Part shown: in pieces, positions 2,306-38,158 of the stretch | How the letters are laid out: every line of letters begins with the position of its first letter | Position numbering within the stretch: the first letter of the stretch is position 1 | Source of the DNA: a virus | Reading direction: 5' to 3' (one strand) | Virus record (IMG/VR): IMGVR_UViG_3300017963_007659 | Location: 96,001-160,000 of that record | DNA: 64,000 bases | The notes under the pieces: generated by a model | Seen by the model: only the letters and a program-made list of their open reading frames with translations | Database searches by the model: none | Told to the model about the DNA's origin: nothing | Program-made: the position numbers and the translations under genes

Positions 2306-2352
2306 TTGACGGAGCCGCTCCATTCTGGTAGGGTGTTTCTATCAGTTGGAGG
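2306..2352 (+). promoter_or_regulatory. Early sigma70-type promoter + RBS cassette, divergent from ardC
   Basis: TTGACG-17 nt-TAGGGT then CAGTTGGAGG. Confidence 0.8.
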
Positions 2353-2357
2353 AAAGC

Positions 2358-2600
2358 ATGGCGAACTATCAGATTTGGATCGGCGCATCCCCATCAGGTC
2401 TTCCCTTGATCGGAGCTGTTGAAGGGGCGAACAACGCAGACGTCCGAGAGCAGGTCTACCCATCGCAGATGCGACATCGCTGCGTAGCGATGGATGGCGA
2501 CAAGATGGTTATCGTCACGCAGACCGAGGCTCGGGAAGGGAACATGGAGGTACTCTCCCACTTCCCCATCGCTGACGGGAGCATGTCTTCTCGACGGTAG
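2358..2600 (+). CDS. Hypothetical early protein
   Basis: ORF with GGAGG RBS directly behind the promoter cassette. Confidence 0.7.
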   Translation: MANYQIWIGASPSGLPLIGAVEGANNADVREQVYPSQMRHRCVAMDGDKMVIVTQTEAREGNMEVLSHFPIADGSMSSRR

Positions 2601-2616
2601 GGAGATAGCCAGGATT

Positions 2617-2643
2617 TGTCTACTCAGTAGCCCTGGGTAGACG
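2617..2643 (+). terminator. Stem-loop between cassettes, possible terminator
   Basis: GTCTACTCAG-TAGCC-CTGGGTAGAC inverted repeat followed by GATTCTTGTT. Confidence 0.4.
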
Positions 2644-2650
2644 ATTCTTG

Positions 2651-2699
2651 TTGACAGGGGTAGGGCATTCTGGTAGTGTGGTCTCAGTTGGTTGGAGGA
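2651..2699 (+). promoter_or_regulatory. Early sigma70-type promoter + RBS cassette
   Basis: TTGACA-17 nt-TAGTGT-GGTCTCAGTTGGTTGGAGG. Confidence 0.9.
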
Positions 2700-2703
2700 G
2701 AGA

Positions 2704-2928
2704 ATGGATAACGGAAGCATCACGACAACTTGCGGCGAGACCTTCTCATACAGAGATCACACTCGCCTAGCGAGATTGATTCACCTTCGCTTCGGAAAAG
2801 ACATTGAAGCCGGGGCAGCGGCTTGGAGGAGGCTGATGCAGAACAGCACGACAGATGATCAGTTCGAGATGCTGGTCAACATCGGCTATCTCCACGCTCT
2901 GGAAGACAAAGAAGGAGAGCCGTCATGA
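2704..2928 (+). CDS. Hypothetical early protein
   Basis: ORF behind the promoter cassette. Confidence 0.7.
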   Translation: MDNGSITTTCGETFSYRDHTRLARLIHLRFGKDIEAGAAAWRRLMQNSTTDDQFEMLVNIGYLHALEDKEGEPS

Positions 2929-3200
2929 CATCAATTTTTGACAAGCTGGACGAAGCCGCAGATAGCGCCAGGAGCCTCGGAGAATCCAACGAGAAGATGG
3001 CACGAGGCATTGAATACGCTAGCGATTGCGTGCGTTCCCGCTACAATGAGCTGTGCGCAGTGCTGAGAAAGGCGAAGAAGCGAGCAGAACGCGAACCTCT
3101 GGATGCTCAAGAGAGAGCCCAACAGACCGAAGACTACGGCGTTGTTCTCGGTCTCGAAATGGCTCTCAAGATCTTCGAGGAAGGGGAGAACCATGGATAA
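2925..3200 (+). CDS. Hypothetical protein
   Basis: ATGA overlap with the upstream gene, AGGAG RBS. Confidence 0.7.
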   Translation: MTSIFDKLDEAADSARSLGESNEKMARGIEYASDCVRSRYNELCAVLRKAKKRAEREPLDAQERAQQTEDYGVVLGLEMALKIFEEGENHG

Positions 3201-3399
3201 GACGCAGAAAGTTCAAGACCTTCTCCGTATGGCCAAGAGCACGAGCGGAAACGTGCACGAAGCTCACCTCGCTGCCAAGCGCGCCGTCGAGATTGCCCGT
3301 GAAAACGACCTCGGAGGTCATCTCGTAGCACGTTGCCTCGTTCTCCAAGGCAAGACCCAGCGGCGGCTGGACCGCAGCCAACTCCCCTCCTACGCCTGA
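3193..3399 (+). CDS. Small DUF2786-like protein
   Basis: QKVQDLLRMAKSTSGNVHEAHLAAKRA resembles the DUF2786 helical motif. Confidence 0.55.
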   Translation: MDKTQKVQDLLRMAKSTSGNVHEAHLAAKRAVEIARENDLGGHLVARCLVLQGKTQRRLDRSQLPSYA

Positions 3400-3623
3400 C
3401 GCTCTAGACGGACATCATCTTCGTCCAACAGTCCACTATACAAGACATACGGACGCCCTCTACAAGAAGCCATATCTCCCGTCAACGGGAGATGGCTCCA
3501 GGACCCTTTTCCTGTAGCAGCTTCAACCTCAGTCTCTGGAAGAAGCTCTTCCCCACATTCCGGACAGTAGGCTCTATACTCCGGAGTCACTACTGGTCGG
3601 AATCCTACGGCGAAGTGGCTCAT
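3390..3623 (-). CDS. Possible small Zn-ribbon protein
   Basis: YCPECGEEL motif; start uncertain. Confidence 0.4.
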   Translation of the reverse strand: MSHFAVGFRPVVTPEYRAYCPECGEELLPETEVEAATGKGSWSHLPLTGDMASCRGRPYVLYSGLLDEDDVRLERQA

Positions 3624-3675
3624 ACCAAACTTTGACCAGTTCGTCCGGAAGTTATCTATCTTTGAGGAGATCTCC

Positions 3676-4293
3676 ATGAAGCACCTTCCCGCTGTTCTCT
3701 CCAAGCTTGTCCTTGAAGGACACAGCGACCTCGCCACAGAGCTTCTCTCCTCATCCTCCTGTCCTCTCCGCACCAAAGCCTATGGAGGTCTCCCCTCGTC
3801 TGGAGGCTACGTAGCATGGACGGAGTACGAGATCGGGGCGCAGCGCATCGCTGAAGCCTCACACTGCATCCTCGGCTCCATGGGAGGGGACCACTGGTTT
3901 GAACCTGGTCATATCCGGGATGAGTTGGACCTGATTGAGAGGACCGTCGAAGAATACTCCAAGCGTCTCTACTCAGATCGCCTGCTCAACTACAACGATG
4001 ACGACATCGAATTCGTCGAAGGCTCCGTCAAGAGCATCGGTAAAGCCTCTCCCAAGCTCAGAGCACGAGCACAGAAGCTCAAAGCGGAGGTAGAGAGACA
4101 GGAAGACATCCCACAGAAGGTCAAGACAACAGCGCTCTTGACCTACGATGTCGTCATTGAACTCACGAACGCTATGGAGCACAGTGTACGGAGTTGGCCG
4201 AAGAAGATGGAGAACGCCTTCCAGAATCGCAAACTACGGCAATCAATACGGAACCTTAGACATGCTGTCGATGCTATGGTTCGAGACTCCTAG
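3676..4293 (+). CDS. Hypothetical protein, possibly virion-internal
   Basis: GAGGAG RBS; N-terminal LSKLVLEGHSDLATELL motif shared with structural-region proteins. Confidence 0.7.
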   Translation: MKHLPAVLSKLVLEGHSDLATELLSSSSCPLRTKAYGGLPSSGGYVAWTEYEIGAQRIAEASHCILGSMGGDHWFEPGHIRDELDLIERTVEEYSKRLYSDRLLNYNDDDIEFVEGSVKSIGKASPKLRARAQKLKAEVERQEDIPQKVKTTALLTYDVVIELTNAMEHSVRSWPKKMENAFQNRKLRQSIRNLRHAVDAMVRDS

Positions 4294-4748
4294 TCGTCAC
4301 TCTCTGTATCATCCGAAGCGGGGAAGTGCTTCTGGATGAAGTCCTCCGAGTAGCCGTCTTTCCTCAGATCAGCGACAACCGCTTCATGCTCCCGGAATCT
4401 ATCTCCGTTGTTGTCCACTCCCGTCTGAATTCCACTGTAGGTAGTATAGATACAGGAGATGGGCAAGCCTCCGCCATCGACAGTGAGGAAAGGGTCGATC
4501 AGGATAGCTGCATCGGGGCAGCAGCCACAGGACCGACGTCGAGATACTTGAAGACCCGGATGAGAGGTGATCTCCTTCGTGTAGAAGCGCTCATTCTTCC
4601 AGCGGTCTTCACCTCGCTGGAGGTTCGGATACGTCACAGCCAAGTCTCGTAGCTGCGCGAGCTTCAAGGTCGACTTCTCAATCGACGCCTCCAGGGAGAG
4701 GAGGTGCTTCTGGATCTCGCTCAGCTCTTCTTTCTGATCCTGTTTCAT
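4290..4748 (-). CDS. Hypothetical protein
   Basis: 152 aa ORF with coiled-coil N-terminus and SCGCCPD motif. Confidence 0.7.
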   Translation of the reverse strand: MKQDQKEELSEIQKHLLSLEASIEKSTLKLAQLRDLAVTYPNLQRGEDRWKNERFYTKEITSHPGLQVSRRRSCGCCPDAAILIDPFLTVDGGGLPISCIYTTYSGIQTGVDNNGDRFREHEAVVADLRKDGYSEDFIQKHFPASDDTESDD

Positions 4749-29183: not shown

Positions 29184-29515
29184 TGGGGAAAATAAAGTAC
29201 GGCAACAAGAAAAGTCACGGTGGTGCGATGGCAAAAGCCATGGTCGTTGGGATGGAGAAGAGGCATGCTCACGCGCAGACGGCGAAGCGAAAGAGGATCT
29301 TCAGTAGATTCATGAAGACAGAGAAGGGTCGGCAGGTCGCGGCGCAGATTGAAGCTGGAGCCCTCCCTGCCGAGAGCATCGAAGTCGATGGCAACAACAT
29401 CGAAGTCAAGGCGACCGTCAATCCAGAGGTTGCAGAGGACACTTCCTCCGATGAAGGCTCAGAAAACGAGTCAAAGGATCAGGAGGAGGAAGGCGATGAG
29501 CGAACGGAAGATTGA
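29183..29515 (+). CDS. Hypothetical protein (basic N-terminus, acidic C-terminus)
   Basis: TGATG overlap with the upstream gene. Confidence 0.7.
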   Translation: MGKIKYGNKKSHGGAMAKAMVVGMEKRHAHAQTAKRKRIFSRFMKTEKGRQVAAQIEAGALPAESIEVDGNNIEVKATVNPEVAEDTSSDEGSENESKDQEEEGDERTED

Positions 29516-29828
29516 CTTCGTTGACGGTGATGTCGTGCTGTTCCTGTCTGGAGGCGTGGCGGTTCGCCGAGATGGTGTGGGGATGTATCGGGTGGATATC
29601 CGAGATGAGCCACATACCATCCAAATCTACTACCATGCAGGTGTTGGCTTTATCAACATAAACGATAACAGTCGTGACACAAGGATGCGCCTGCTTCTTC
29701 CGAGGGGGCTTGGGTCCAATCTTGAAGACGATATCGTCAGTGCTATGCTGGAGTTGGAGATCCTCTCTCAGATCAACAGCGACAAGGCTCAGAAGGGCAA
29801 GCTGCCTGACGGTTGGGCGAAGAAATGA
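29496..29828 (+). CDS. Hypothetical protein
   Basis: AGGAGG RBS before MSERKIDF. Confidence 0.65.
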   Translation: MSERKIDFVDGDVVLFLSGGVAVRRDGVGMYRVDIRDEPHTIQIYYHAGVGFININDNSRDTRMRLLLPRGLGSNLEDDIVSAMLELEILSQINSDKAQKGKLPDGWAKK

Positions 29829-30035
29829 CCTCTTCCAACGAGAAGTCCTATCGTGCCGTTGAGATGGCTAAGGTGTCTGCGCGCTATCGTCTCCGACTCG
29901 TCCGTAAGGTCATTGAAAAGCTAGACAAGAAAGCCTCAAGTAGAACCTCCGTTTCCGCACACTAACACCTCCTACGTTACTATGCGGTTCCACTGTTATC
30001 GAAATCCAGTCAAAGTACAGTAAGTGAGAAGACAG

Positions 30036-30515
30036 ATGGCAAACAAAGAGGAAGAGCTGTACTACATTCAGGACACACGCAGTGTGGTAGGAGACTGCGT
30101 TCTGTGGTGGGGTCCAGACGGCAATGGCTACACCCTCAATATCGAAAGGGCTGGCCTATACACCTACAAGCAGGCGTCGAGCCATCGGGAAACCGACGTT
30201 CCTTGGCCAAAGTCCATGGTCGACAGCCTCATCTCTTCTCATGTGCATATCGACAGCTTGAGAACGGTTCCCACAGTTGAGGTCAAGCGGTGGAAAGGCG
30301 ATTGGTACAAAACCACACACCAGGTCGTCCGGACAACGGAAACGCAGATCCTCATTTCGTGCGGACAGCGAGAGGAGCGCTACAGTCGAAAGACGGGACG
30401 TCGCGTCGGAGCTTCCAAGCAAGGACTCCGGAGCGCGAGACTCCCGCGCATCGAAAAGAGAGAACTCAAGTGGCTTGAGTCGAGGCTCACGAACACGTGG
30501 AACAAAAAACGCTGA
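30036..30515 (+). CDS. Hypothetical phage protein
   Basis: YYIQDTRSVVGDCVLWWGPDGNGYT; CAGTCAAAGTA motif upstream. Confidence 0.7.
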   Translation: MANKEEELYYIQDTRSVVGDCVLWWGPDGNGYTLNIERAGLYTYKQASSHRETDVPWPKSMVDSLISSHVHIDSLRTVPTVEVKRWKGDWYKTTHQVVRTTETQILISCGQREERYSRKTGRRVGASKQGLRSARLPRIEKRELKWLESRLTNTWNKKR

Positions 30516-30561
30516 AGTTTTGAGAGCAATTCTCAAAGAAAGGTAGTCAAAGTATATTGTC

Positions 30562-31743
30562 ATGAAGGTTTATCGCTCGACACGCTGTACCTTGAAGTAC
30601 ACCAATCCACACAAGCTGGACATCTTGTCTGAGATTATAGACGAGTACGGCAGGGTGGTGCGGTTGTACATCGACTTGTTCTGGGAAAAGTCGCGATACC
30701 TTCATAATAATGACCTCTTGAAGCCTGTCATCGAATCAATCCCTCCGACGTGGCTGGGATATAAATTCAAAAGGGACGCGGCTCGTGAGGCTCTGCGAAA
30801 CATCCGGTCTATAACGAATAGACCAGGGACGCCACAAAAGAAGCCGAACTATAAAGGGCGGTCAATGACTCTCCATTTTGACACCGCCTATCTGACGGAC
30901 TCCAAAAAGACAGATTCTTTTGACGCCTGGTTTAGATTGCGTGGAGTTGGGAAGTATTCGGATACAGGAGAGGGGATATGCATCGCTTTTCCTATAAAAT
31001 TCCACAAGCATTTCAATCAATTGAGCGCCAAAGGAAGGCGCGTCAATACTATCCATGTCTATCGGGACTCAGTACAATTCATCTTTGAACTTGAGACCGG
31101 GGAGAAGAGGACCAAGGGCAAGCAGGTCGGAGTCTACACAAATGGGGAGACTCTTGCCACTATCTCCGATGGCACGAAGTACGGTACGGACATCGGACGC
31201 TATGTCGATCGTGTACAAAGATGCGTGCCTGGGTCAAAGGGCCACAGGAAGGCGCAGCGAGCGCTCAAACAGCGTCTGAATGAAGTAGTCAAAGAAATTG
31301 GGCGTAAGCATGTCAAGCTCTTTGTGCTTGAGCGTGCCAAACCCAAGAAGGATGCGATAGGCGGACGTTGCTCGCCAGAAAACAAGCAACGATCTCTCGG
31401 TATCTGGGCATACACCTACTGGTTGGAGAGGTTTCATAGAGAGTGTGAGATGAGACGTTCTCGCTTTCGCTCTACCGCTCCTGTATATACCAAGACGTGT
31501 TGTTCAGCATGTGGAAGTACCGAGAGGAGTAATCTGTCCGGTGAAACGTTCCTGTGTACCACATGTGGTCATAGGAGCAAAGCAGCAGTGAACGTTGCTC
31601 AAAACACTTTGGACAGGTATCTCTCTGGACCCTACGGTGCCAGATTCAAACCCGGACGCTCTGGAAAACGAGGTCAGGGAACGGTATTTGTACAATCGCC
31701 TATCTCTCAAAAACAGGGATCGACGAAAGGACTACAAGAATGA
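30562..31743 (+). CDS. tnpB: TnpB-derived protein with inactivated RuvC (TldR-like, nuclease-dead)
   Basis: TnpB architecture; RuvC-I GVYTNG (D to Y), RuvC-II FVLE kept, Zn finger CSAC...CTTC intact, RuvC-III KAAVNVAQN (D to A); no tnpA. Confidence 0.85.
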   Translation: MKVYRSTRCTLKYTNPHKLDILSEIIDEYGRVVRLYIDLFWEKSRYLHNNDLLKPVIESIPPTWLGYKFKRDAAREALRNIRSITNRPGTPQKKPNYKGRSMTLHFDTAYLTDSKKTDSFDAWFRLRGVGKYSDTGEGICIAFPIKFHKHFNQLSAKGRRVNTIHVYRDSVQFIFELETGEKRTKGKQVGVYTNGETLATISDGTKYGTDIGRYVDRVQRCVPGSKGHRKAQRALKQRLNEVVKEIGRKHVKLFVLERAKPKKDAIGGRCSPENKQRSLGIWAYTYWLERFHRECEMRRSRFRSTAPVYTKTCCSACGSTERSNLSGETFLCTTCGHRSKAAVNVAQNTLDRYLSGPYGARFKPGRSGKRGQGTVFVQSPISQKQGSTKGLQE

Positions 31744-32087
31744 CCTACTGTTGTCCTCTATGTGACCTGGAGATCACCAAGGACCGTCCGTACTGTAGCA
31801 ACATGTACTGCACCGTCGGCTACTACAACTGTCTATCCATGAACTGTCTATCCATGCCAGATGCTCCAGACATGGAGGATGTCGACAATCCTCTGGATAA
31901 ACGGGAAGCTCTCAATCGAAAGCAGGGTTCCTATTTTGGAGTGGATGCGGCTTCTCAGTGGCTACTGGAGAGAGCAGCATATTCTTTCACGAAGAATCAG
32001 GATGACACAGCGCGCACTCTCAGGGAGGCAGCTACCCTGATGCGTGACTCCAAGAAGGATATCCTCGCAGACTCGAACGAAGGGTAA
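31740..32087 (+). CDS. Hypothetical Cys-rich protein
   Basis: ATGA overlap; CCPLC...YCSNMYC. Confidence 0.65.
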   Translation: MTYCCPLCDLEITKDRPYCSNMYCTVGYYNCLSMNCLSMPDAPDMEDVDNPLDKREALNRKQGSYFGVDAASQWLLERAAYSFTKNQDDTARTLREAATLMRDSKKDILADSNEG

Positions 32088-32143
32088 GTCCTCGGTTATT
32101 GTGATTTAGGGGCATTTTACGCCTCTGGACACAACGAGGCTTC

Positions 32144-33160
32144 ATGGTTGCTACCAAACCACCGGACTACATCTACAAGGATATTCCCCGATCCACCGCT
32201 GAAGCTGTTCAGAACAACGCCTATGAGGAGTCCCTCGTCCTCGTCAAGTCCGCCATCCAGCACTACCTTAATCAGTTTTTCGATTCAGATGGGAAGTATC
32301 GAAGACTTGTAGAGTCTGTGTGCCCAACTGTAGGACAATTCGTTACAGACGTTCGTGTCCCTCGGCCTGGAGAATACGAAGACCCAACAAAGTACAAAAT
32401 TCAGATCGCTCGGATGTGGCAAGGTCTCAAGCAGCGTCTTCCTTGCATCGTCATTGCGGAGACTGGCTGGACTCGTCAGAACTCTCTGAGTGACATCTCG
32501 GGTGGTATCTCCGTGCCGGGGACCGATGGGCTCCAGCACTCTCCGTTGTGGCTCAGCAACTTCCTCATGGGGAGCATCGATATTCTTGTAGGGGCGTTGG
32601 ATGAACATACGACAGGGCAGATAACTTCCCAACTTATCAATATCTTTGGGCCTTTGAAGGAGTTCACCAAAGAGACAATCTTGAAGCCGACGACACCTAC
32701 AGGTGGGTCAACCTGGGAAGTTCGGCTTCCGATGAATCAAACCATCAGCTCCAGAGAGCGAATCAACATCGGAGATGACCCTGTCTCGTCGCTGTGGTCG
32801 GCTACGCTGTCCTTGGATGACGTCCACTTCGAGGGGTCAACACCTCTCGATATGGAGGCTGCTGTTCCGACGGAGCCCGATTATGGTCCGAATACCCCTG
32901 TAGACAGCGATGACTTCCCTGACACCACAATCGTTGTTTCCTCTCCGGTTAAGTTGGGGAGAGCCCAACCATTCCGTGTAGTTAACGAACGCTACAGCGC
33001 CGTCATCTACAGCGACAATCCCCGTGTGGCACTGATACGGGGCTACACCATCATCCCTAGGAAAGTTGGTACATTTAATATAGTCGTGGCTAATGGTAAT
33101 AGTGTTGGTCTTGAGGCCGACATCTTTGCAAAGCAAGAGGTGTCTGTGGCACTTATATAG
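32144..33160 (+). CDS. Virion structural protein (neck/tail-completion-like) with Ig-like C-terminus; last 30 codons supplied by the TnpB element
   Basis: Position upstream of the sheath, LPCIVIAETG, beta-rich C-terminus, GGTTATT motif upstream. Confidence 0.6.
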   Translation: MVATKPPDYIYKDIPRSTAEAVQNNAYEESLVLVKSAIQHYLNQFFDSDGKYRRLVESVCPTVGQFVTDVRVPRPGEYEDPTKYKIQIARMWQGLKQRLPCIVIAETGWTRQNSLSDISGGISVPGTDGLQHSPLWLSNFLMGSIDILVGALDEHTTGQITSQLINIFGPLKEFTKETILKPTTPTGGSTWEVRLPMNQTISSRERINIGDDPVSSLWSATLSLDDVHFEGSTPLDMEAAVPTEPDYGPNTPVDSDDFPDTTIVVSSPVKLGRAQPFRVVNERYSAVIYSDNPRVALIRGYTIIPRKVGTFNIVVANGNSVGLEADIFAKQEVSVALI

Positions 33161-34402
33161 CTCAGAGAGGGTTAGATAGCTAGTAGGCGCATAGAGCAGC
33201 AATCACATAGAAATTTAATGTTTGTGGCACATAAAATAGCGTTATCTCCTACCCCAGATCAGGAGACGTACTTCAGGAAAGCAGCAGGTACAGCGCGCTT
33301 CGCTTATAATTGGGCTTTAGACCAATGGGTATCTCTTTACCGATTGGGAGAAAAGCCAAGTGAAGCTATGATCCGAAAAAACTTAAACAAGATCAAGTAT
33401 ATTGAATTCCCTTGGATGAAAGACGTTTCAAAAACGGTACCACAACAATCGATTAAAAATCTGGGAAAGGCTTTCAACAACTTTTTCAATAAGCGTGCTA
33501 AATACCCGAAATATAAGAAACTTGGGAGGCATGACGCATTCCGTGCGGATAATGGTCCTCAAACTAAAGGAGCCGATGCGGTCCAGGTTAATGGAAAATC
33601 AGTCGGCATACCAAAACTCGGCTGGGTACGAATGCGAGAAGCGCTTCGTTTTGAAGGCCAAATAAAGTCCGCTACGATCTCACGAAGAGCCCAGCGGTGG
33701 TACATCAGTTTTTTGGTTGATAGCCCGCTTTGCTCCTTCCAGCGCGAAAACCAAGCAGTTGGAGGAGTAGACCTTGGTCTTCGTTGGATGGCTGTTACAA
33801 GCGATGGTGTCTTCTATGAGAATCCGAAGCCGCTGAAAGCTAACTTGAGGAAGCTTAAGAGACTACAGCGACAACTTCGCAACAAGAAGAAGGGGTCGAA
33901 CAGACGGACGCGACTCCAACATCGGATCGCGGAGCTTCATGTGAGAATCGCTGATATCAGAAAAGATGCTCTGCATAAGGCGACGACATCCTTGGTTAGA
34001 GATTACTCTACAATTGTTATCGAAGACCTAAATGTAGTGGGGATGCTGAAGAATCGTTATCTCTCCAGAGCTGTCTCGGATGTGGGATTGTACGAATTCC
34101 GTCGTCAACTTGAGTACAAAGCGAAGTGGTATGGGACAAAAGTCCTCTTAGCAGATCGTTGGTTCCCTTCCAGCAAACTCTGTTCGTGTTGTGGCTATAA
34201 GTACTCAGAACTAAAGCTTGGAATGGAATCGTGGGTGTGTCCTGTCTGTAAGACAGAGCATGATAGAGACCGGAACGCAGCTATCAATCTACGGGAAGTT
34301 CTCCCGGAAGTTACGCACGTGGAGACCACGTCCTCTACTTCTCTAGCTGGACTAGAGAAGCAAGGCAGGTCGATGAAGCGTGAACTTGTTGAAAGAGAAC
34401 GG
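33068..34402 (+). mobile_element. Transposase-less IS607-type TnpB element carrying a recoded 3' end of its target gene
   Basis: Bounded by GG at 33068-69 and 34401-02; 33068-33160 and 34401-34493 encode the same 30-aa C-terminus (25/30 identical). Confidence 0.85.
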
Positions 34403-34411
34403 TACTTTTAA
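33218..34411 (+). CDS. tnpB: RNA-guided endonuclease TnpB, catalytically intact
   Basis: HTH AHKIALSPT...GTARFAYNWAL; RuvC GGVDLG, IVIEDLNV, HDRDRNAAINL; Zn finger CSCC...CPVC. Confidence 0.97.
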   Translation: MFVAHKIALSPTPDQETYFRKAAGTARFAYNWALDQWVSLYRLGEKPSEAMIRKNLNKIKYIEFPWMKDVSKTVPQQSIKNLGKAFNNFFNKRAKYPKYKKLGRHDAFRADNGPQTKGADAVQVNGKSVGIPKLGWVRMREALRFEGQIKSATISRRAQRWYISFLVDSPLCSFQRENQAVGGVDLGLRWMAVTSDGVFYENPKPLKANLRKLKRLQRQLRNKKKGSNRRTRLQHRIAELHVRIADIRKDALHKATTSLVRDYSTIVIEDLNVVGMLKNRYLSRAVSDVGLYEFRRQLEYKAKWYGTKVLLADRWFPSSKLCSCCGYKYSELKLGMESWVCPVCKTEHDRDRNAAINLREVLPEVTHVETTSSTSLAGLEKQGRSMKRELVERERYF

Positions 34412-34422
34412 CATAGTGGTTG
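34290..34422 (+). ncRNA. Predicted TnpB omegaRNA (scaffold 3' part + guide)
   Basis: Hairpins CGGGA/TCCCG, ACGTGG/CCACGT, CTTCTCTAG/CTAGAGAAG and GTCGATGAAGC overlapping the tnpB 3' end; guide predicted from about 34403; boundaries approximate. Confidence 0.6.
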
Positions 34423-34493
34423 CTGATGGCAACTCCACAGGGCTCGAAGCTAGAATTTTTGCAACTCAGGAAGTCTCTGTATCTCTCATATGA
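34401..34493 (+). pseudogene. Displaced original 3' end of gene 32144-33160
   Basis: Reads GTFNIVVADGNSTGLEARIFATQEVSVSLI-stop, with no start codon or RBS. Confidence 0.9.
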
Positions 34494-34597
34494 TCTGGTC
34501 GCACGGATGCGTCTTATAAAGACGACCTCTCTAGAGCGAGGTTATCTTTAGACGATATCGATGAAATTGACCAAATAAGAACGGAGCGTTCAGAACC

Positions 34598-37500
34598 ATG
34601 GCTGACGTCTTAGTCACATCACAATATGTGCTCCCAGGTTCGTACCTAGGAAGAATCTACACACCCAACGCCGGAACGCTGTCGGGCGACCCAAGACAAC
34701 CCTGTTACGTTGGGAAGGGTAGTCGACTTGCGACCGCAGCGAACGTTCCGATCCGCCGTGCGTTTTTGCAGGGAGAGGTCATCCCCTTCCCGCAGACGGT
34801 GCCGCACTTGGTAACTCTTGCGCACCCATCGGATGGCGACCAGACGTTGGCAACGATGACTACACAGTCGGGGGCTGTCATTCCAGCCTCGAAGTGGCAG
34901 TTCCAGAAGTCCGCTCCCGGTATCACAGGATACGACCAAATTCTGCTGTTGCCGGAAGCCTTCAACTCCACCTCGACCTACACTCTCGACTACCAGACCA
35001 TCGACCGAGATGTTGTCGATGATGTCCCGTTTGACGAGATGCGTCAAATGGTTAGAGTAGGCGACTACCAGGACCAGGATTTCTACTCCGAGCAGGTGGA
35101 CTACCGCGTTATCACCTCCAATACGGATCCAGTTCCGGACCCGACGGTGGCGAACGCGACGACTACGCTGTTCACTCCTGTTCAGCAGACGGCTACGGGT
35201 GGTGGTGCTCCGACTCCGACGGTCAATGTTGGTGCCACCTACACAGGGCAGCACAACAGGCACTATCGCTTTGAGGCGGTTGGGCTCGCACCGCTGACCT
35301 TCTTGGTGGACATCACCAACGAGGGTGGCGGCAACAACCTGACTCCGGACTATCCGGTAGGTCCGAACATCAGCGGGCTGACCTTCCCGGTCGCTATCGC
35401 GGGTGCTTACGACCTCGACTCTCAGATGGGGCTCACCTCTCTTGGTGTGCTAGTCGACCTCGACCCGGCTGACCCTGGTGTCTGGGCTGTTGGTGACGTT
35501 TTTGAGTTCAACGCGCTTGGACCGTCCGTCATCGAATTGGACCCAACCTACGACAACACCAACCAGTTCTCTTCGGTTTCTGCCCTCACAGCAGCGGCTG
35601 GAAATGGTGGAACTGGTACAGTGACACTGAACCCCAATACGGACTTCACGGGATCGACGAACAAAGATGTGCGCATCGAATGTGCCTCCTTTGCTGGTCT
35701 GTCTCCGAACCGAACCGCTCTCTTCGATTGGCAGACCTACGGGGCTGATGCGATTGAGAAGGGATCGATTCTTGTAGATGAGTCTGTCGCGGGGAACCTG
35801 ATCAACCGAACGGTAGCCGATGGAATCTCTGTCGACTTCGACTTCGGCACGGATGCTGGTGGAAACAGCGCGAACTTCGTTTTTGCGGCTGGTATCATCA
35901 CCTTCGATGCGGGTACAGGTACCTTCACTCCTAGCATGGTTGGTCGGCAGATCACCATCGTTGGAGCCACTACCCCTGCGAATGATGGTACCTTCGTCAT
36001 CGCTTCCTATATCTCTCCAACACAAATCACCTACGCCAACGCTCTTGGTGTAACCGAGGTTGGAGCAGGTACCTGGGTTGTGGAAGGTTTCTTCGTTCCG
36101 ACCTCAGCGACGACACAGGGCGACCTCTTCACGACGGCTGCTACTGCCCCCATGCTCTATTACACGGGTAAGGACGACCGAGAGTACACTCTGGAGGTCA
36201 CAGCAGCTACGTCTACTCCGTTCACCGCAGTGACTGGTGTTGCGATTGCTCCAACGAATACGTTCGACGTCGCAACGGATCTCACGACAGCCATCGCGCT
36301 TCATCCGAACATTCGGGTCGAAGGTTCGACGGGCAACGACAATCTCTATACGGTCCAGTCCACCTCCTACGATTCTGGAACGGACACCACGACTATCACC
36401 ACAGTCGAGAACGTCCCGAATGCCGTAGCAGATGGAAACCTCTGGTACGGAACAGGCGCAGCGTCCATCTTCTGGTCGACAGCTACTCCTGAAGGTGGTT
36501 TCGGTACCCTTTCTCTGTTGGATAACGACACGGCTTCACCGCTCGCCGATGAGATCAAGTTCTATGTCCGAAACTCTGGAAATCCGCTGCTTCGCTCGGA
36601 TGCTCAGAATCAGAGAAACGTCATCGCAGACGTCTGGACCTTCACGGTTACGAATGAGGATGAGATCTCTTGGACGCTCGCAGCGCGCGAGACGGAGACC
36701 ATCGCTGTAGCGGACCTTCGACAAGATACCACGGGTTCCATCACAGGAGCTTCTGGTGGCGTTCCTGGCACGCGTTACCTCATCCTTGAGCAAACTCCTA
36801 CGATCCAGCCTCTTCGAGTGTGGACGACCAACCCGACGACCAGTGTCACCACTGAGCTGACGGTTGCAACGACACCTCCCTATGTCGCTGGTTCGGACGC
36901 CTACTGGATCACCGGGACACCGTACATCTTCTTCCCGACGACTCCGACTGAGCCTGTCTCGGTCACCTACCAGCACAGAGCGTTGGAGCCGGATCCTGGA
37001 CAGGTCTACTACATCACGTCGTACTACCTGCGACCCCTCAACTTCTACAACAACCCGATTCGGTTGCTGAACGAAGACGAGGCGATCTCGGTTCTCGGTC
37101 CCATGGACCCCGAGAACGACCTTCTCATCATGGCTCTCGTTGCCCTGGTGGACTGCAACGCCTTCGCTGTTTGGGTCACGCAGGTTCGAGACACAGACGA
37201 TGACGGTGTGTATACCACATACGACTACAACACGGCTATTGAAGCCACAGAGCTGAATGACCAACTCACGGACATCACAGTTCTACAGAACTTCGATTCG
37301 CTGTCCAAGCTGAAGACGTCTGTCATCCAGATGAACGACCCCTTCGAGCGGAAGCAGCGTCTGTGCTGGGTTGGAGCCCCCATTGGGACAGAGATTGGCG
37401 ATACCGACACTCCGGACACTTTGGTCTACTTGGCCAAGAGAACGCTCCAGGTGTACGGTGAGAGCCCCGCGCACGGTGCCTTCATTCTTGTAGGCAACAC

Positions 37501-38158
37501 GGTGTGTGAGCGCACCATTGAGCTGGCTGAAGGGACTCAGACCACTGTCACCCTTGACGGAAGCTTCGTGGCGGGTGCTGCGGCTGCTCTTGTCGCCTCC
37601 TACACTGATCCTGGTGAGACCATTCTCCGAAAGGACCAGCCAGGGTTCGACCGTATCGGTGGAACGACCATCGATATTCAGTACGAGGAGAAGGAACTCA
37701 AGCTGCTTGGTGCGGCGGGTGCAAGTACCTTGAATGAGGTTGGCTCCGGTATCTACCAGTGGGTTGAGGACATCACCGTAGACACATTCGCCCAAGATAC
37801 TCAGCAGATCAACGCGATGACCCAGAAGCAATTCGTCGAGCGTTACGTCCGAAGTCGGATGGACACCTCGATTACGGGTATCGTGGCTCCGTCTGCTCAG
37901 GCGGGTGTCGCCATCGTCAAGGGCTTCCTGGTTGAGCTGCTTCGCTCACTGGCAAGTCGGGGTATCATCGGTGCGTGGACGGATGACTCTGGGAATGAGC
38001 GAGACATCGATCCTCAGAACGATGTTGAAGTATTCCGGGATGATACGGACCGAACGTTGTACCACTACAAGTTCTGGTTCAACATTCGGTACCCAATCAA
38101 GCGGACCTTCGGTCTCTACTCCGTCGACTCTCGTTCCTTCACACCGCTCGCTGCCTAG
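34598..38158 (+). CDS. Contractile tail sheath protein with large inserted domains
   Basis: N-terminal QYVLPGSYLGR; C-terminal sheath domain FVAGAAAALVAS, VKGFLVELLRSLASRGII, FWFNIRYPIKR. Confidence 0.88.
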   Translation: MADVLVTSQYVLPGSYLGRIYTPNAGTLSGDPRQPCYVGKGSRLATAANVPIRRAFLQGEVIPFPQTVPHLVTLAHPSDGDQTLATMTTQSGAVIPASKWQFQKSAPGITGYDQILLLPEAFNSTSTYTLDYQTIDRDVVDDVPFDEMRQMVRVGDYQDQDFYSEQVDYRVITSNTDPVPDPTVANATTTLFTPVQQTATGGGAPTPTVNVGATYTGQHNRHYRFEAVGLAPLTFLVDITNEGGGNNLTPDYPVGPNISGLTFPVAIAGAYDLDSQMGLTSLGVLVDLDPADPGVWAVGDVFEFNALGPSVIELDPTYDNTNQFSSVSALTAAAGNGGTGTVTLNPNTDFTGSTNKDVRIECASFAGLSPNRTALFDWQTYGADAIEKGSILVDESVAGNLINRTVADGISVDFDFGTDAGGNSANFVFAAGIITFDAGTGTFTPSMVGRQITIVGATTPANDGTFVIASYISPTQITYANALGVTEVGAGTWVVEGFFVPTSATTQGDLFTTAATAPMLYYTGKDDREYTLEVTAATSTPFTAVTGVAIAPTNTFDVATDLTTAIALHPNIRVEGSTGNDNLYTVQSTSYDSGTDTTTITTVENVPNAVADGNLWYGTGAASIFWSTATPEGGFGTLSLLDNDTASPLADEIKFYVRNSGNPLLRSDAQNQRNVIADVWTFTVTNEDEISWTLAARETETIAVADLRQDTTGSITGASGGVPGTRYLILEQTPTIQPLRVWTTNPTTSVTTELTVATTPPYVAGSDAYWITGTPYIFFPTTPTEPVSVTYQHRALEPDPGQVYYITSYYLRPLNFYNNPIRLLNEDEAISVLGPMDPENDLLIMALVALVDCNAFAVWVTQVRDTDDDGVYTTYDYNTAIEATELNDQLTDITVLQNFDSLSKLKTSVIQMNDPFERKQRLCWVGAPIGTEIGDTDTPDTLVYLAKRTLQVYGESPAHGAFILVGNTVCERTIELAEGTQTTVTLDGSFVAGAAAALVASYTDPGETILRKDQPGFDRIGGTTIDIQYEEKELKLLGAAGASTLNEVGSGIYQWVEDITVDTFAQDTQQINAMTQKQFVERYVRSRMDTSITGIVAPSAQAGVAIVKGFLVELLRSLASRGIIGAWTDDSGNERDIDPQNDVEVFRDDTDRTLYHYKFWFNIRYPIKRTFGLYSVDSRSFTPLAA

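Follow-up and report, generated by a model that had tools for sequence, protein, structure and literature searches.

A 64,000-nt stretch of viral DNA (positions 96,001 to 160,000 of the 186-kb IMG/VR virus record IMGVR_UViG_3300017963_007659; hereafter the window) contains what we read, with high confidence from the sequence, as a transposase-less TnpB–omegaRNA cassette that carries a substitute end for the gene it has entered and uses the displaced end of that gene as its guide template. The gene, at 32144-33160, encodes 338 aa, the final 30 of which are supplied by a segment we call copy A. A second version of the same gene end, copy B (34401-34493), has its own stop codon and overlaps the last 11 nt of tnpB, so that tnpB lies between an upstream gene end that is fused in frame and a displaced downstream one. 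The best reading of this arrangement, to which we assign a probability of roughly 0.6, is that the cassette homes between co-infecting phages; we favor it because of the layout itself, the known activity of TnpB, the recurrence of the layout in other viruses, and the linkage pattern seen in a group of Bacillus phages.

An earlier note on this DNA had drawn attention to the duplicate, and its description is borne out in full: 25 of the 30 residues are identical between copies A and B, 17 of these 25 are spelled with a different synonymous codon (the other eight share the codon), GG starts both copies, and the stop codon of copy B is intact. The two copies agree at 61 of 93 nucleotides, third-position identity is 0.30, and the longest in-register shared run is 7 nt. 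This is not a chance resemblance, because the protein alignment of the two tnpB flanks scores 117, compared to a mean of 39 (standard deviation 12) for mismatched flank pairs and a median of 35 for bacterial TnpB loci (n = 71). Nor is the locus a chimeric assembly, because independent assemblies (ENA, Logan, JGI, and IMG/VR) from at least three samples show 100% identity across as much as 15 kb. The insert spans approximately 33070-34402 and accounts for 1333 nt that are extra in the window relative to related phages; with copy A in place the gene keeps a full-length product, 338 aa compared to 337–340 aa in the relatives. At third codon positions the G+C content (GC3) of tnpB, 0.46, is below that of the host gene body (0.59) and of the downstream gene (0.64), which is consistent with a foreign origin and incomplete amelioration.

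The right end of the element can be placed to the base. Eight TnpB relatives have 3′ regions that can be aligned with the 115 nt before copy B (34288-34402), with GTGGAG and TGAAGC among the common motifs. The first hairpin of this scaffold shows 100% paired cells and compensatory changes in four of its five pairs; slid-register controls reach 50% pairing at most, and none of 500 shuffles attained its covariation score. All aligned relatives terminate in GAACGG or a close variant, and GAGAACGG is common to L091, L092, L015, L016, and L019. Among these, the mutual homology of L016 and L019 (independent and tnpA-bearing) and L015 (tnpA-less) stops exactly after ACGG. Because independent copies diverge exactly after the terminal GG, the right end is put at 34402, and because the scaffold and the right end stop there, the guide is predicted to be templated by the first bases of copy B. 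TnpB takes its guide, ~16 nt long, from the DNA next to the right end (PMC8612924), and IS607 elements integrate at GG, with a TnpB that uses a transposon-adjacent motif (TAM) ending in GG (PMC10690162). The GG of copy B is the terminal core dinucleotide of the element and the GG of copy A is that of the target, and on sequence grounds the two GG junctions are the junction signature of IS607. A 16-nt guide has just two matches in the genome, an exact one in copy B and one in copy A with three of 16 positions mismatched (4, 10, and 16); when 20 nt are compared, copy A also differs at position 19.

Table 1. Features of the TnpB cassette and its surroundings, in coordinates of the window
Feature	Position	Strand	Evidence
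Host gene body, first 308 codons	32144..33067	+	ORF (open reading frame); six homologues; AlphaFold/Foldseek
Candidate TAM and GG core (GTTGG), left junction	33065..33069	+	GG kept in four relatives
Copy A, substitute last 30 codons and stop, in frame with the gene body	33068..33160	+	ORF; codon comparison
57-nt spacer between the stop of copy A and the tnpB start	33161..33217	+	One weak promoter-like match overlaps
tnpB, 397 aa	33218..34411	+	RuvC triad and zinc finger intact
Putative omegaRNA scaffold over the 3′ end of tnpB (segment that aligns with relatives); right end at 34402 (...GAGAACGG)	34288..34402	+	
Predicted guide template, first 16–20 nt past the right end, equal to the start of copy B	34403..34422	+	Position relative to the right end
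Copy B, displaced last 30 codons and stop, unjoined to any gene	34401..34493	+	Contiguous with ancestral intergenic region
Ancestral intergenic region with conserved motif GGTTATCTTTAGACGA	34494..34597	+	Aligns with intergenic regions of relatives
Next gene (1186 aa), syntenic in relatives; right homology arm	34598..38158	+	63–76% identical to the next gene of relatives

The TnpB protein matches the Pfam domains HTH_OrfB_IS605, OrfB_IS605, and Cas12f1-like_TNB and aligns with the ISDra2 TnpB (8bf8) at an E-value of 2e-65. The three acidic RuvC residues that had been reported as kept are D185, E269, and D351, which fall in the catalytic columns of the relatives, and two CxxC pairs are present. 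The NF040570 profile is matched with 304 bits against a cut-off of 100; of the NCBIfam subfamily profiles, IS200_TnpB (348 bits) scores above IS607_TnpB (273 bits), with both below their own cut-offs. The closest homologues among 5.8 billion proteins are 50%–58% identical. In all three of those looked up (L091, L092, and L093; 53%–55% aa identity), tnpB comes directly after MerR and Resolvase genes, and in the viral relative L019 it is preceded by a 212-aa ORF of the MerR-helix-turn-helix/serine recombinase type. Membership of the IS607 lineage, which the earlier note had assumed, is therefore supported: the closest TnpB relatives directly follow serine-recombinase tnpA genes. The same note had remarked on the missing tnpA, and that absence extends to the entire 186-kb record, in which neither serine recombinase (PF00239) nor Y1 transposase (PF01797) has a match. 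At the left end, local alignment of 33040-33217 with the left-end regions of five tnpA-bearing relatives was no better than with shuffles, although left ends vary between subfamilies and a strongly diverged one could escape the alignment; judged by eye, the 57-nt spacer has no convincing homology to the intergenic regions of relatives. Mobilization in trans by a host TnpA was considered and rejected, as no left end is recognizable.

The interrupted gene appears to encode a part of the virion. Its product has six homologues, at 34%–80% identity, and no match in Pfam, NCBIfam, or PHROGs. An AlphaFold model made from seven sequences has a mean pLDDT (predicted local distance difference test) of 64, rising to ~80–90 over the C-terminal 80 residues. 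Foldseek matches this model to the lambda tail-tube protein gpV, T5 pb6, tail terminators, and the C-terminal immunoglobulin (Ig)-like domain of gpV, with probabilities up to 1.00 and low TM-scores. The model thus gives reasonable support to a virion structural gene, tail-tube or terminator-like, with a C-terminal Ig-like domain, the final two strands of which would be encoded by the 30 duplicated codons. Of the earlier description as a likely essential structural gene, the structural part agrees with these matches, and conservation and synteny suggest that the gene is essential.

Four relative loci (L002, L003, L007/L008/L009, and L010) have a single gene tail and no tnpB. In each, the host gene is followed by 99–131 nt and then by a homologue of the 1186-aa gene (63%–76% identical). 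The uninterrupted junction reads GTTGG followed by TAC in L002 and L007, and ACGGG followed by TAC or AAC in L010 and L003; its GG, kept in all four relatives, opens the codon for the invariant Gly309. Uninterrupted empty alleles had been predicted in the earlier note, and the case it had named as refuting, in which all relatives carry both copies and lack tnpB, is excluded by the single tails. Tandem paralogues older than tnpB are ruled out by the single-copy state of the relatives, as is a target-site duplication by the mere 66% identity of the copies. Because alignment with the intergenic regions of L002, L003, L007, and L010 extends over the 104 nt that follow copy B, including the motif GGTTATCTTTAGACGA, copy B occupies the ancestral position relative to everything downstream. 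All five phages have this motif, with small variants, ahead of the 1186-aa gene, although the rest of the spacer differs; a role as promoter or regulatory site is probable. Neither the locus nor the host gene had a match in a cultured-phage collection searched at the DNA and protein levels, and a scan of viral contigs with the host protein was likewise negative. A degenerate DNA pattern for the GTFNIVVA motif returned two viral and 62 metagenome loci, of which a single one was a true family member; as it was already known, no further empty or occupied alleles were added.

The layout is not confined to the window. Using protein alignment of the tnpB flanks and a threshold score of at least 70, we found flank duplicates at ten of 72 viral TnpB loci versus one of 71 bacterial loci, the sole bacterial case being a Thermoactinomyces prophage that corresponds to L020. 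A search of phage genomes for tnpB flanked by recoded duplicates of a neighboring gene end, which the earlier note had proposed, thus yields several clear cases. At L076/L081, 53 codons are duplicated with 66% nucleotide identity and 25 synonymous changes. The most extreme re-spelling is that of L036 (2798-2851 and 4295-4348), where an 18-codon gene end is duplicated around tnpB with 15 of 18 residues identical, 13 synonymous changes, only two identical codons, and a longest shared run of 3 nt. In L082/L083/L085/L088 the host gene is antisense to tnpB and the duplicated part is its 5′ end (the start codon region); the copies in L082 are at 2759-2858 and 4204-4300, the displaced one being on the guide side. 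L020 (2880-2962 and 4166-4250; equivalent to L104, Thermoactinomyces intermedius) duplicates the end of a DnaQ-like exonuclease gene together with a terminator hairpin at ~85% identity, and this pair is much less diverged than the others. L038 and L052 also score above 70 but appear to be low-complexity. In every verified case, the copy joined to the gene is on the 5′ side of tnpB and the guide side holds the fragment.

The L076 locus offers a view of occupied and empty alleles among cultured phages. In the Bacillus cereus group, 14 records representing 11 distinct phages have its host gene. IEBH and 250 are carriers, with an arc-like gene and tnpB after the host gene; in LY4, PfNC7401, Waukesha92, BMBtp3, and CUBc25, which are empty, 9–11 nt separate the host gene from the next one. 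Gene bodies are 82%–94% identical to that of L076 throughout. The tails of the empty alleles are 82%–93% identical to the displaced copy of L076 and 66%–70% identical to its substitute, whereas those of the carriers are reversed (93% to the substitute and 67% to the displaced copy). Since only carriers have substitute-type tails and the empty alleles match the displaced copy, these comparisons identify the displaced tail as the native Bacillus allele and the substitute tail as a foreign one whose linkage to the cassette is strict. The guide-side sequence of L076 matches the uninterrupted allele of BMBtp3 over its first 17 nt, next to TTAT, and L076's own substitute differs from it at positions 3–6. 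A comparison of IEBH (L242, EU874396.1, 2501-4440) with the L076 prophage (2326-4360) shows 94% nucleotide identity over the substitute tail, terminator, arc-like gene, and promoter, and the stretch that IEBH and 250 have in common with L076 reaches the tnpB start codon. The TnpB of IEBH and 250 is a different one, with 35% aa identity to that of L076; an IS607-type end (...GGCAACGG) is placed after the stop codon, where in IEBH it adjoins the start of the next gene, and there is no displaced copy. This suggests that TnpB/omegaRNA units have been exchanged behind a common rescue module.

Homing of the window cassette would proceed as follows. In a cell co-infected by a cassette-free relative, TnpB–omegaRNA would cut the uninterrupted allele, recognized as a TAM ending in GG and then B-type sequence. 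Repair of the break from the carrier, in which the gene body would serve as left arm and copy B with the region downstream as right arm, would bring copy A, tnpB, and the omegaRNA into the recipient. Mismatches of copy A to the guide (positions 4, 10, 16, and 19) would protect the junction of the carrier itself, and the near-saturated synonymous difference between A and B would block recombination between them and loop-out of the cassette. The first cassette probably goes back to an IS607 insertion at this GG, for which illegitimate recombination with a diverged allele provided the rescue and replaced the left end and tnpA. The strong synonymous difference need not be "designed": only diverged A/B pairs would be expected to persist, because similar copies would be cut by the guide or lost by recombination.

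Two claims of the earlier note need adjustment here. The anatomy it had proposed for the element (gene tail, tnpB, and omegaRNA) holds and can be drawn more sharply, as the omegaRNA ends at the GG of copy B; its view that copy A is the foreign allele has a firm counterpart only in the analogous Bacillus loci. The undecayed state of copy B had been taken as a sign of recent invasion, and this is not supported. Copy B is not free to decay, because its first 16–20 nt are the guide template and the remainder is a homology arm. As for the wider proposition, we regard it as evenly poised whether phages hold widespread RNA-guided "cut-and-rescue" homing cassettes, that is, TnpB–omegaRNA units that have shed their transposase, target conserved genes, carry a synonymously diverged rescue piece mismatched to the guide, use the displaced original as guide template and homology arm, and are modular in their parts.

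Several observations weigh against homing of the window cassette. All cassette-bearing contigs are of one genotype, and with the nearest TnpB about 57% identical there is no sign of movement between phage backgrounds. The four empty alleles, all from distant relatives, mismatch the guide at 2–6 of 20 positions (position 10 in three of them), and two of them have ACGGG upstream rather than GTTGG, the candidate TAM of this TnpB. The omegaRNA of the window lacks one hairpin found in relatives, and a search of 29500-35000 against Rfam (E ≤ 1) gave no family match and no group I intron. A single-sequence fold of the 3′ region is no more stable than shuffles (z = −0.9), and because neither Rfam nor this fold gave evidence of an omegaRNA, the case for one comes from comparison with relatives. 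Finally, divergence does not tell which of the two copies in the window is foreign, because synonymous sites are saturated versus all relatives. Nucleotide identities to the four relatives are 0.79, 0.72, 0.72, and 0.59 for copy B and 0.64, 0.66, 0.56, and 0.57 for copy A; 30-codon windows along the gene body give a range that includes or comes near both sets, and third positions are saturated. GC3 is ~0.33–0.35 for both tails and is no guide to which is native.

Some of these points would sit comfortably with an inert scar, in which an IS607 insertion was followed by repair of the gene with a diverged allele, leaving tnpB as a stranded passenger that neither cuts nor spreads. The absence of tnpA and a left end, the single genotype with no close TnpB relative elsewhere, the omegaRNA shorter than those of relatives, and the imperfect guide matches of the sampled empty alleles are all in keeping with this idea. 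We nevertheless consider it unlikely, as the 397-aa ORF is uninterrupted and retains the three catalytic residues and both CxxC pairs, and the RNA scaffold retains its motifs, a paired hairpin, and an exact terminus. Moreover, unrelated phages show the same layout around other host genes and with TnpBs of other subfamilies, and repeated accidents of no benefit are hard to credit. Somewhat less probable again is that the cassette is a weapon: TnpB would cut the tail-tube gene of rivals in mixed infections and so exclude them, copying would be rare or irrelevant, and the substitute would serve as self-immunity. The anatomy expected is the same as under homing, killing of diverged competitors by homing endonucleases has been described (PMC13565253), and with relatives at ~67%–70% nucleotide identity, homologous repair from the carrier would often fail. 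Set against this, the substitute tail and left module of the Bacillus phages are 93%–94% identical at the nucleotide level in phages whose other flanks differ, which is a footprint of copying, and in the window the gene body and copy B plus downstream sequence offer usable homology arms.

Regulatory domestication seems very improbable. Here TnpB–omegaRNA would bind its own locus (copy B or, weakly, copy A) and control the 1186-aa gene in the manner of TldR; the guide target does lie ~200 nt upstream of that gene, and a second TnpB-like gene devoid of RuvC residues is nearby (30562-31743). But the window TnpB retains the full RuvC triad, copy B is preceded by the element's own scaffold rather than by a TAM-bearing flank, and the relatives regulate the same gene with no TnpB. 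That the locus is an artefact joining two strain variants of the gene tail is an idea prompted by the record being a metagenome assembly with two alleles of one segment 1.3 kb apart; it can be set aside almost entirely, given the identity of separate assemblies from different samples over the whole locus and a right junction that matches a conserved transposon terminus to the base.

Placed among known systems, the cassette resembles IS607 TnpB/omegaRNA elements such as the IStron TnpB of Clostridium botulinum (PMC10690162). It shares with them the RuvC triad, an omegaRNA that overlaps the 3′ end of tnpB and runs to the right end, a GG core at the junctions, a guide taken from the right flank, and closest relatives that are tnpA(serine)–tnpB pairs. 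Unlike these elements and the IStron, it has no tnpA, recognizable left end, or group I intron; a substitute piece of the host gene occupies the left-end position, and the gene is kept whole by this DNA-level substitute rather than by splicing as in the IStron. The proposed RNA-guided cut of an element-free allele and copying from the occupied one resembles TnpB homing in ISDra2 (PMC8612924) and in Geobacillus elements (10.1101/2023.03.14.532601), and TnpB-driven spread with no TnpA has been shown experimentally in plasmids (PMC11870625). Those TnpB elements, however, occupy permissive sites and carry no host-gene fragment, whereas the window cassette sits inside a conserved gene and carries its repair; the arena proposed here, mixed phage infection, also differs from the bacteria and plasmids in which TnpB homing is established.

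A structural precedent is known from fungal mitochondria, where mobile endonuclease ORFs (mORFs) are found in atp6 of Allomyces macrogynus and in atp6, atp9, cox2, and nad3 of Glomus (PMC3630166). In these, too, a foreign C-terminal end is fused in frame, followed by an endonuclease gene and the displaced native C-terminus. The native end of mORFs resembles relatives and the inserted end is diverged, which can be likened to the Bacillus loci; in the window, copy B is closer to relatives than copy A, but at saturated sites. The mORFs encode protein-only LAGLIDADG or GIY-YIG enzymes in an organelle; the window has a phage cassette whose RNA guide would be the displaced end, so that target and cassette are physically coupled through the guide. 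The free-standing homing endonucleases of T-even phages (Seg and Mob, with intronless homing and marker exclusion; PMC13565253) differ from the window in being intergenic and protein-guided and in having no gene-end duplication. In that 2026 review, homing of transposons into co-infecting phages appears as no more than a theoretical category (PMC13565253). A full-text literature search, with subscription journals outside its coverage, found no paper on TnpB cassettes with replacement gene ends; the earlier note had suggested as much for TnpB, and the layout as such has its precedent in the fungal mitochondrial elements (PMC3630166).

TnpB genes are among the most abundant in prokaryotes, and the roles shown for them are transposon retention after excision and spread within plasmid populations. 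If the homing reading is true, a transposase-free TnpB that resides in essential phage genes and brings along the piece that repairs them would represent a third lifestyle and an RNA-guided equivalent of the mitochondrial endonuclease elements and of intronless homing in phages. It would account for the stand-alone, tnpA-less tnpB genes common in phage genomes and show how structural genes could acquire mosaic ends. Synthetic cleave-and-rescue and home-and-rescue drives, engineered with Cas9 in insects, combine in one cassette a nuclease directed against an essential gene and a recoded, cleavage-immune rescue; the window cassette would be a natural phage counterpart and could serve as a model for such drives, including their avoidance of self-cutting and of internal recombination. 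Cultured phages of the Bacillus cereus group, with IEBH and 250 as carriers and BMBtp3, Waukesha92, and LY4 as empty relatives, make the idea testable.

Two further elements of this phage group deserve mention. The second TnpB-like gene near the cassette (30562-31743, + strand) encodes 393 aa with the TNB domain only and an NF040570 score of 38 bits, and Y and A replace its first and third RuvC aspartates. It is probably nuclease-dead and may be a TldR-like RNA-guided DNA binder. Its flanks contain no duplicate (score 44, equal to background), and the gene, together with an overlapping 115-aa ORF (31740-32087), is absent from L002, L003, L007, and L010. Elsewhere, the ribonucleotide reductase large subunit of the relative L002 (3204-6872) is 1222 aa long with intein and HNH matches, and that of the window phage (L004, 1696-4752) is 1018 aa with only a faint intein match; this intein is another homing-type element that varies within the group.

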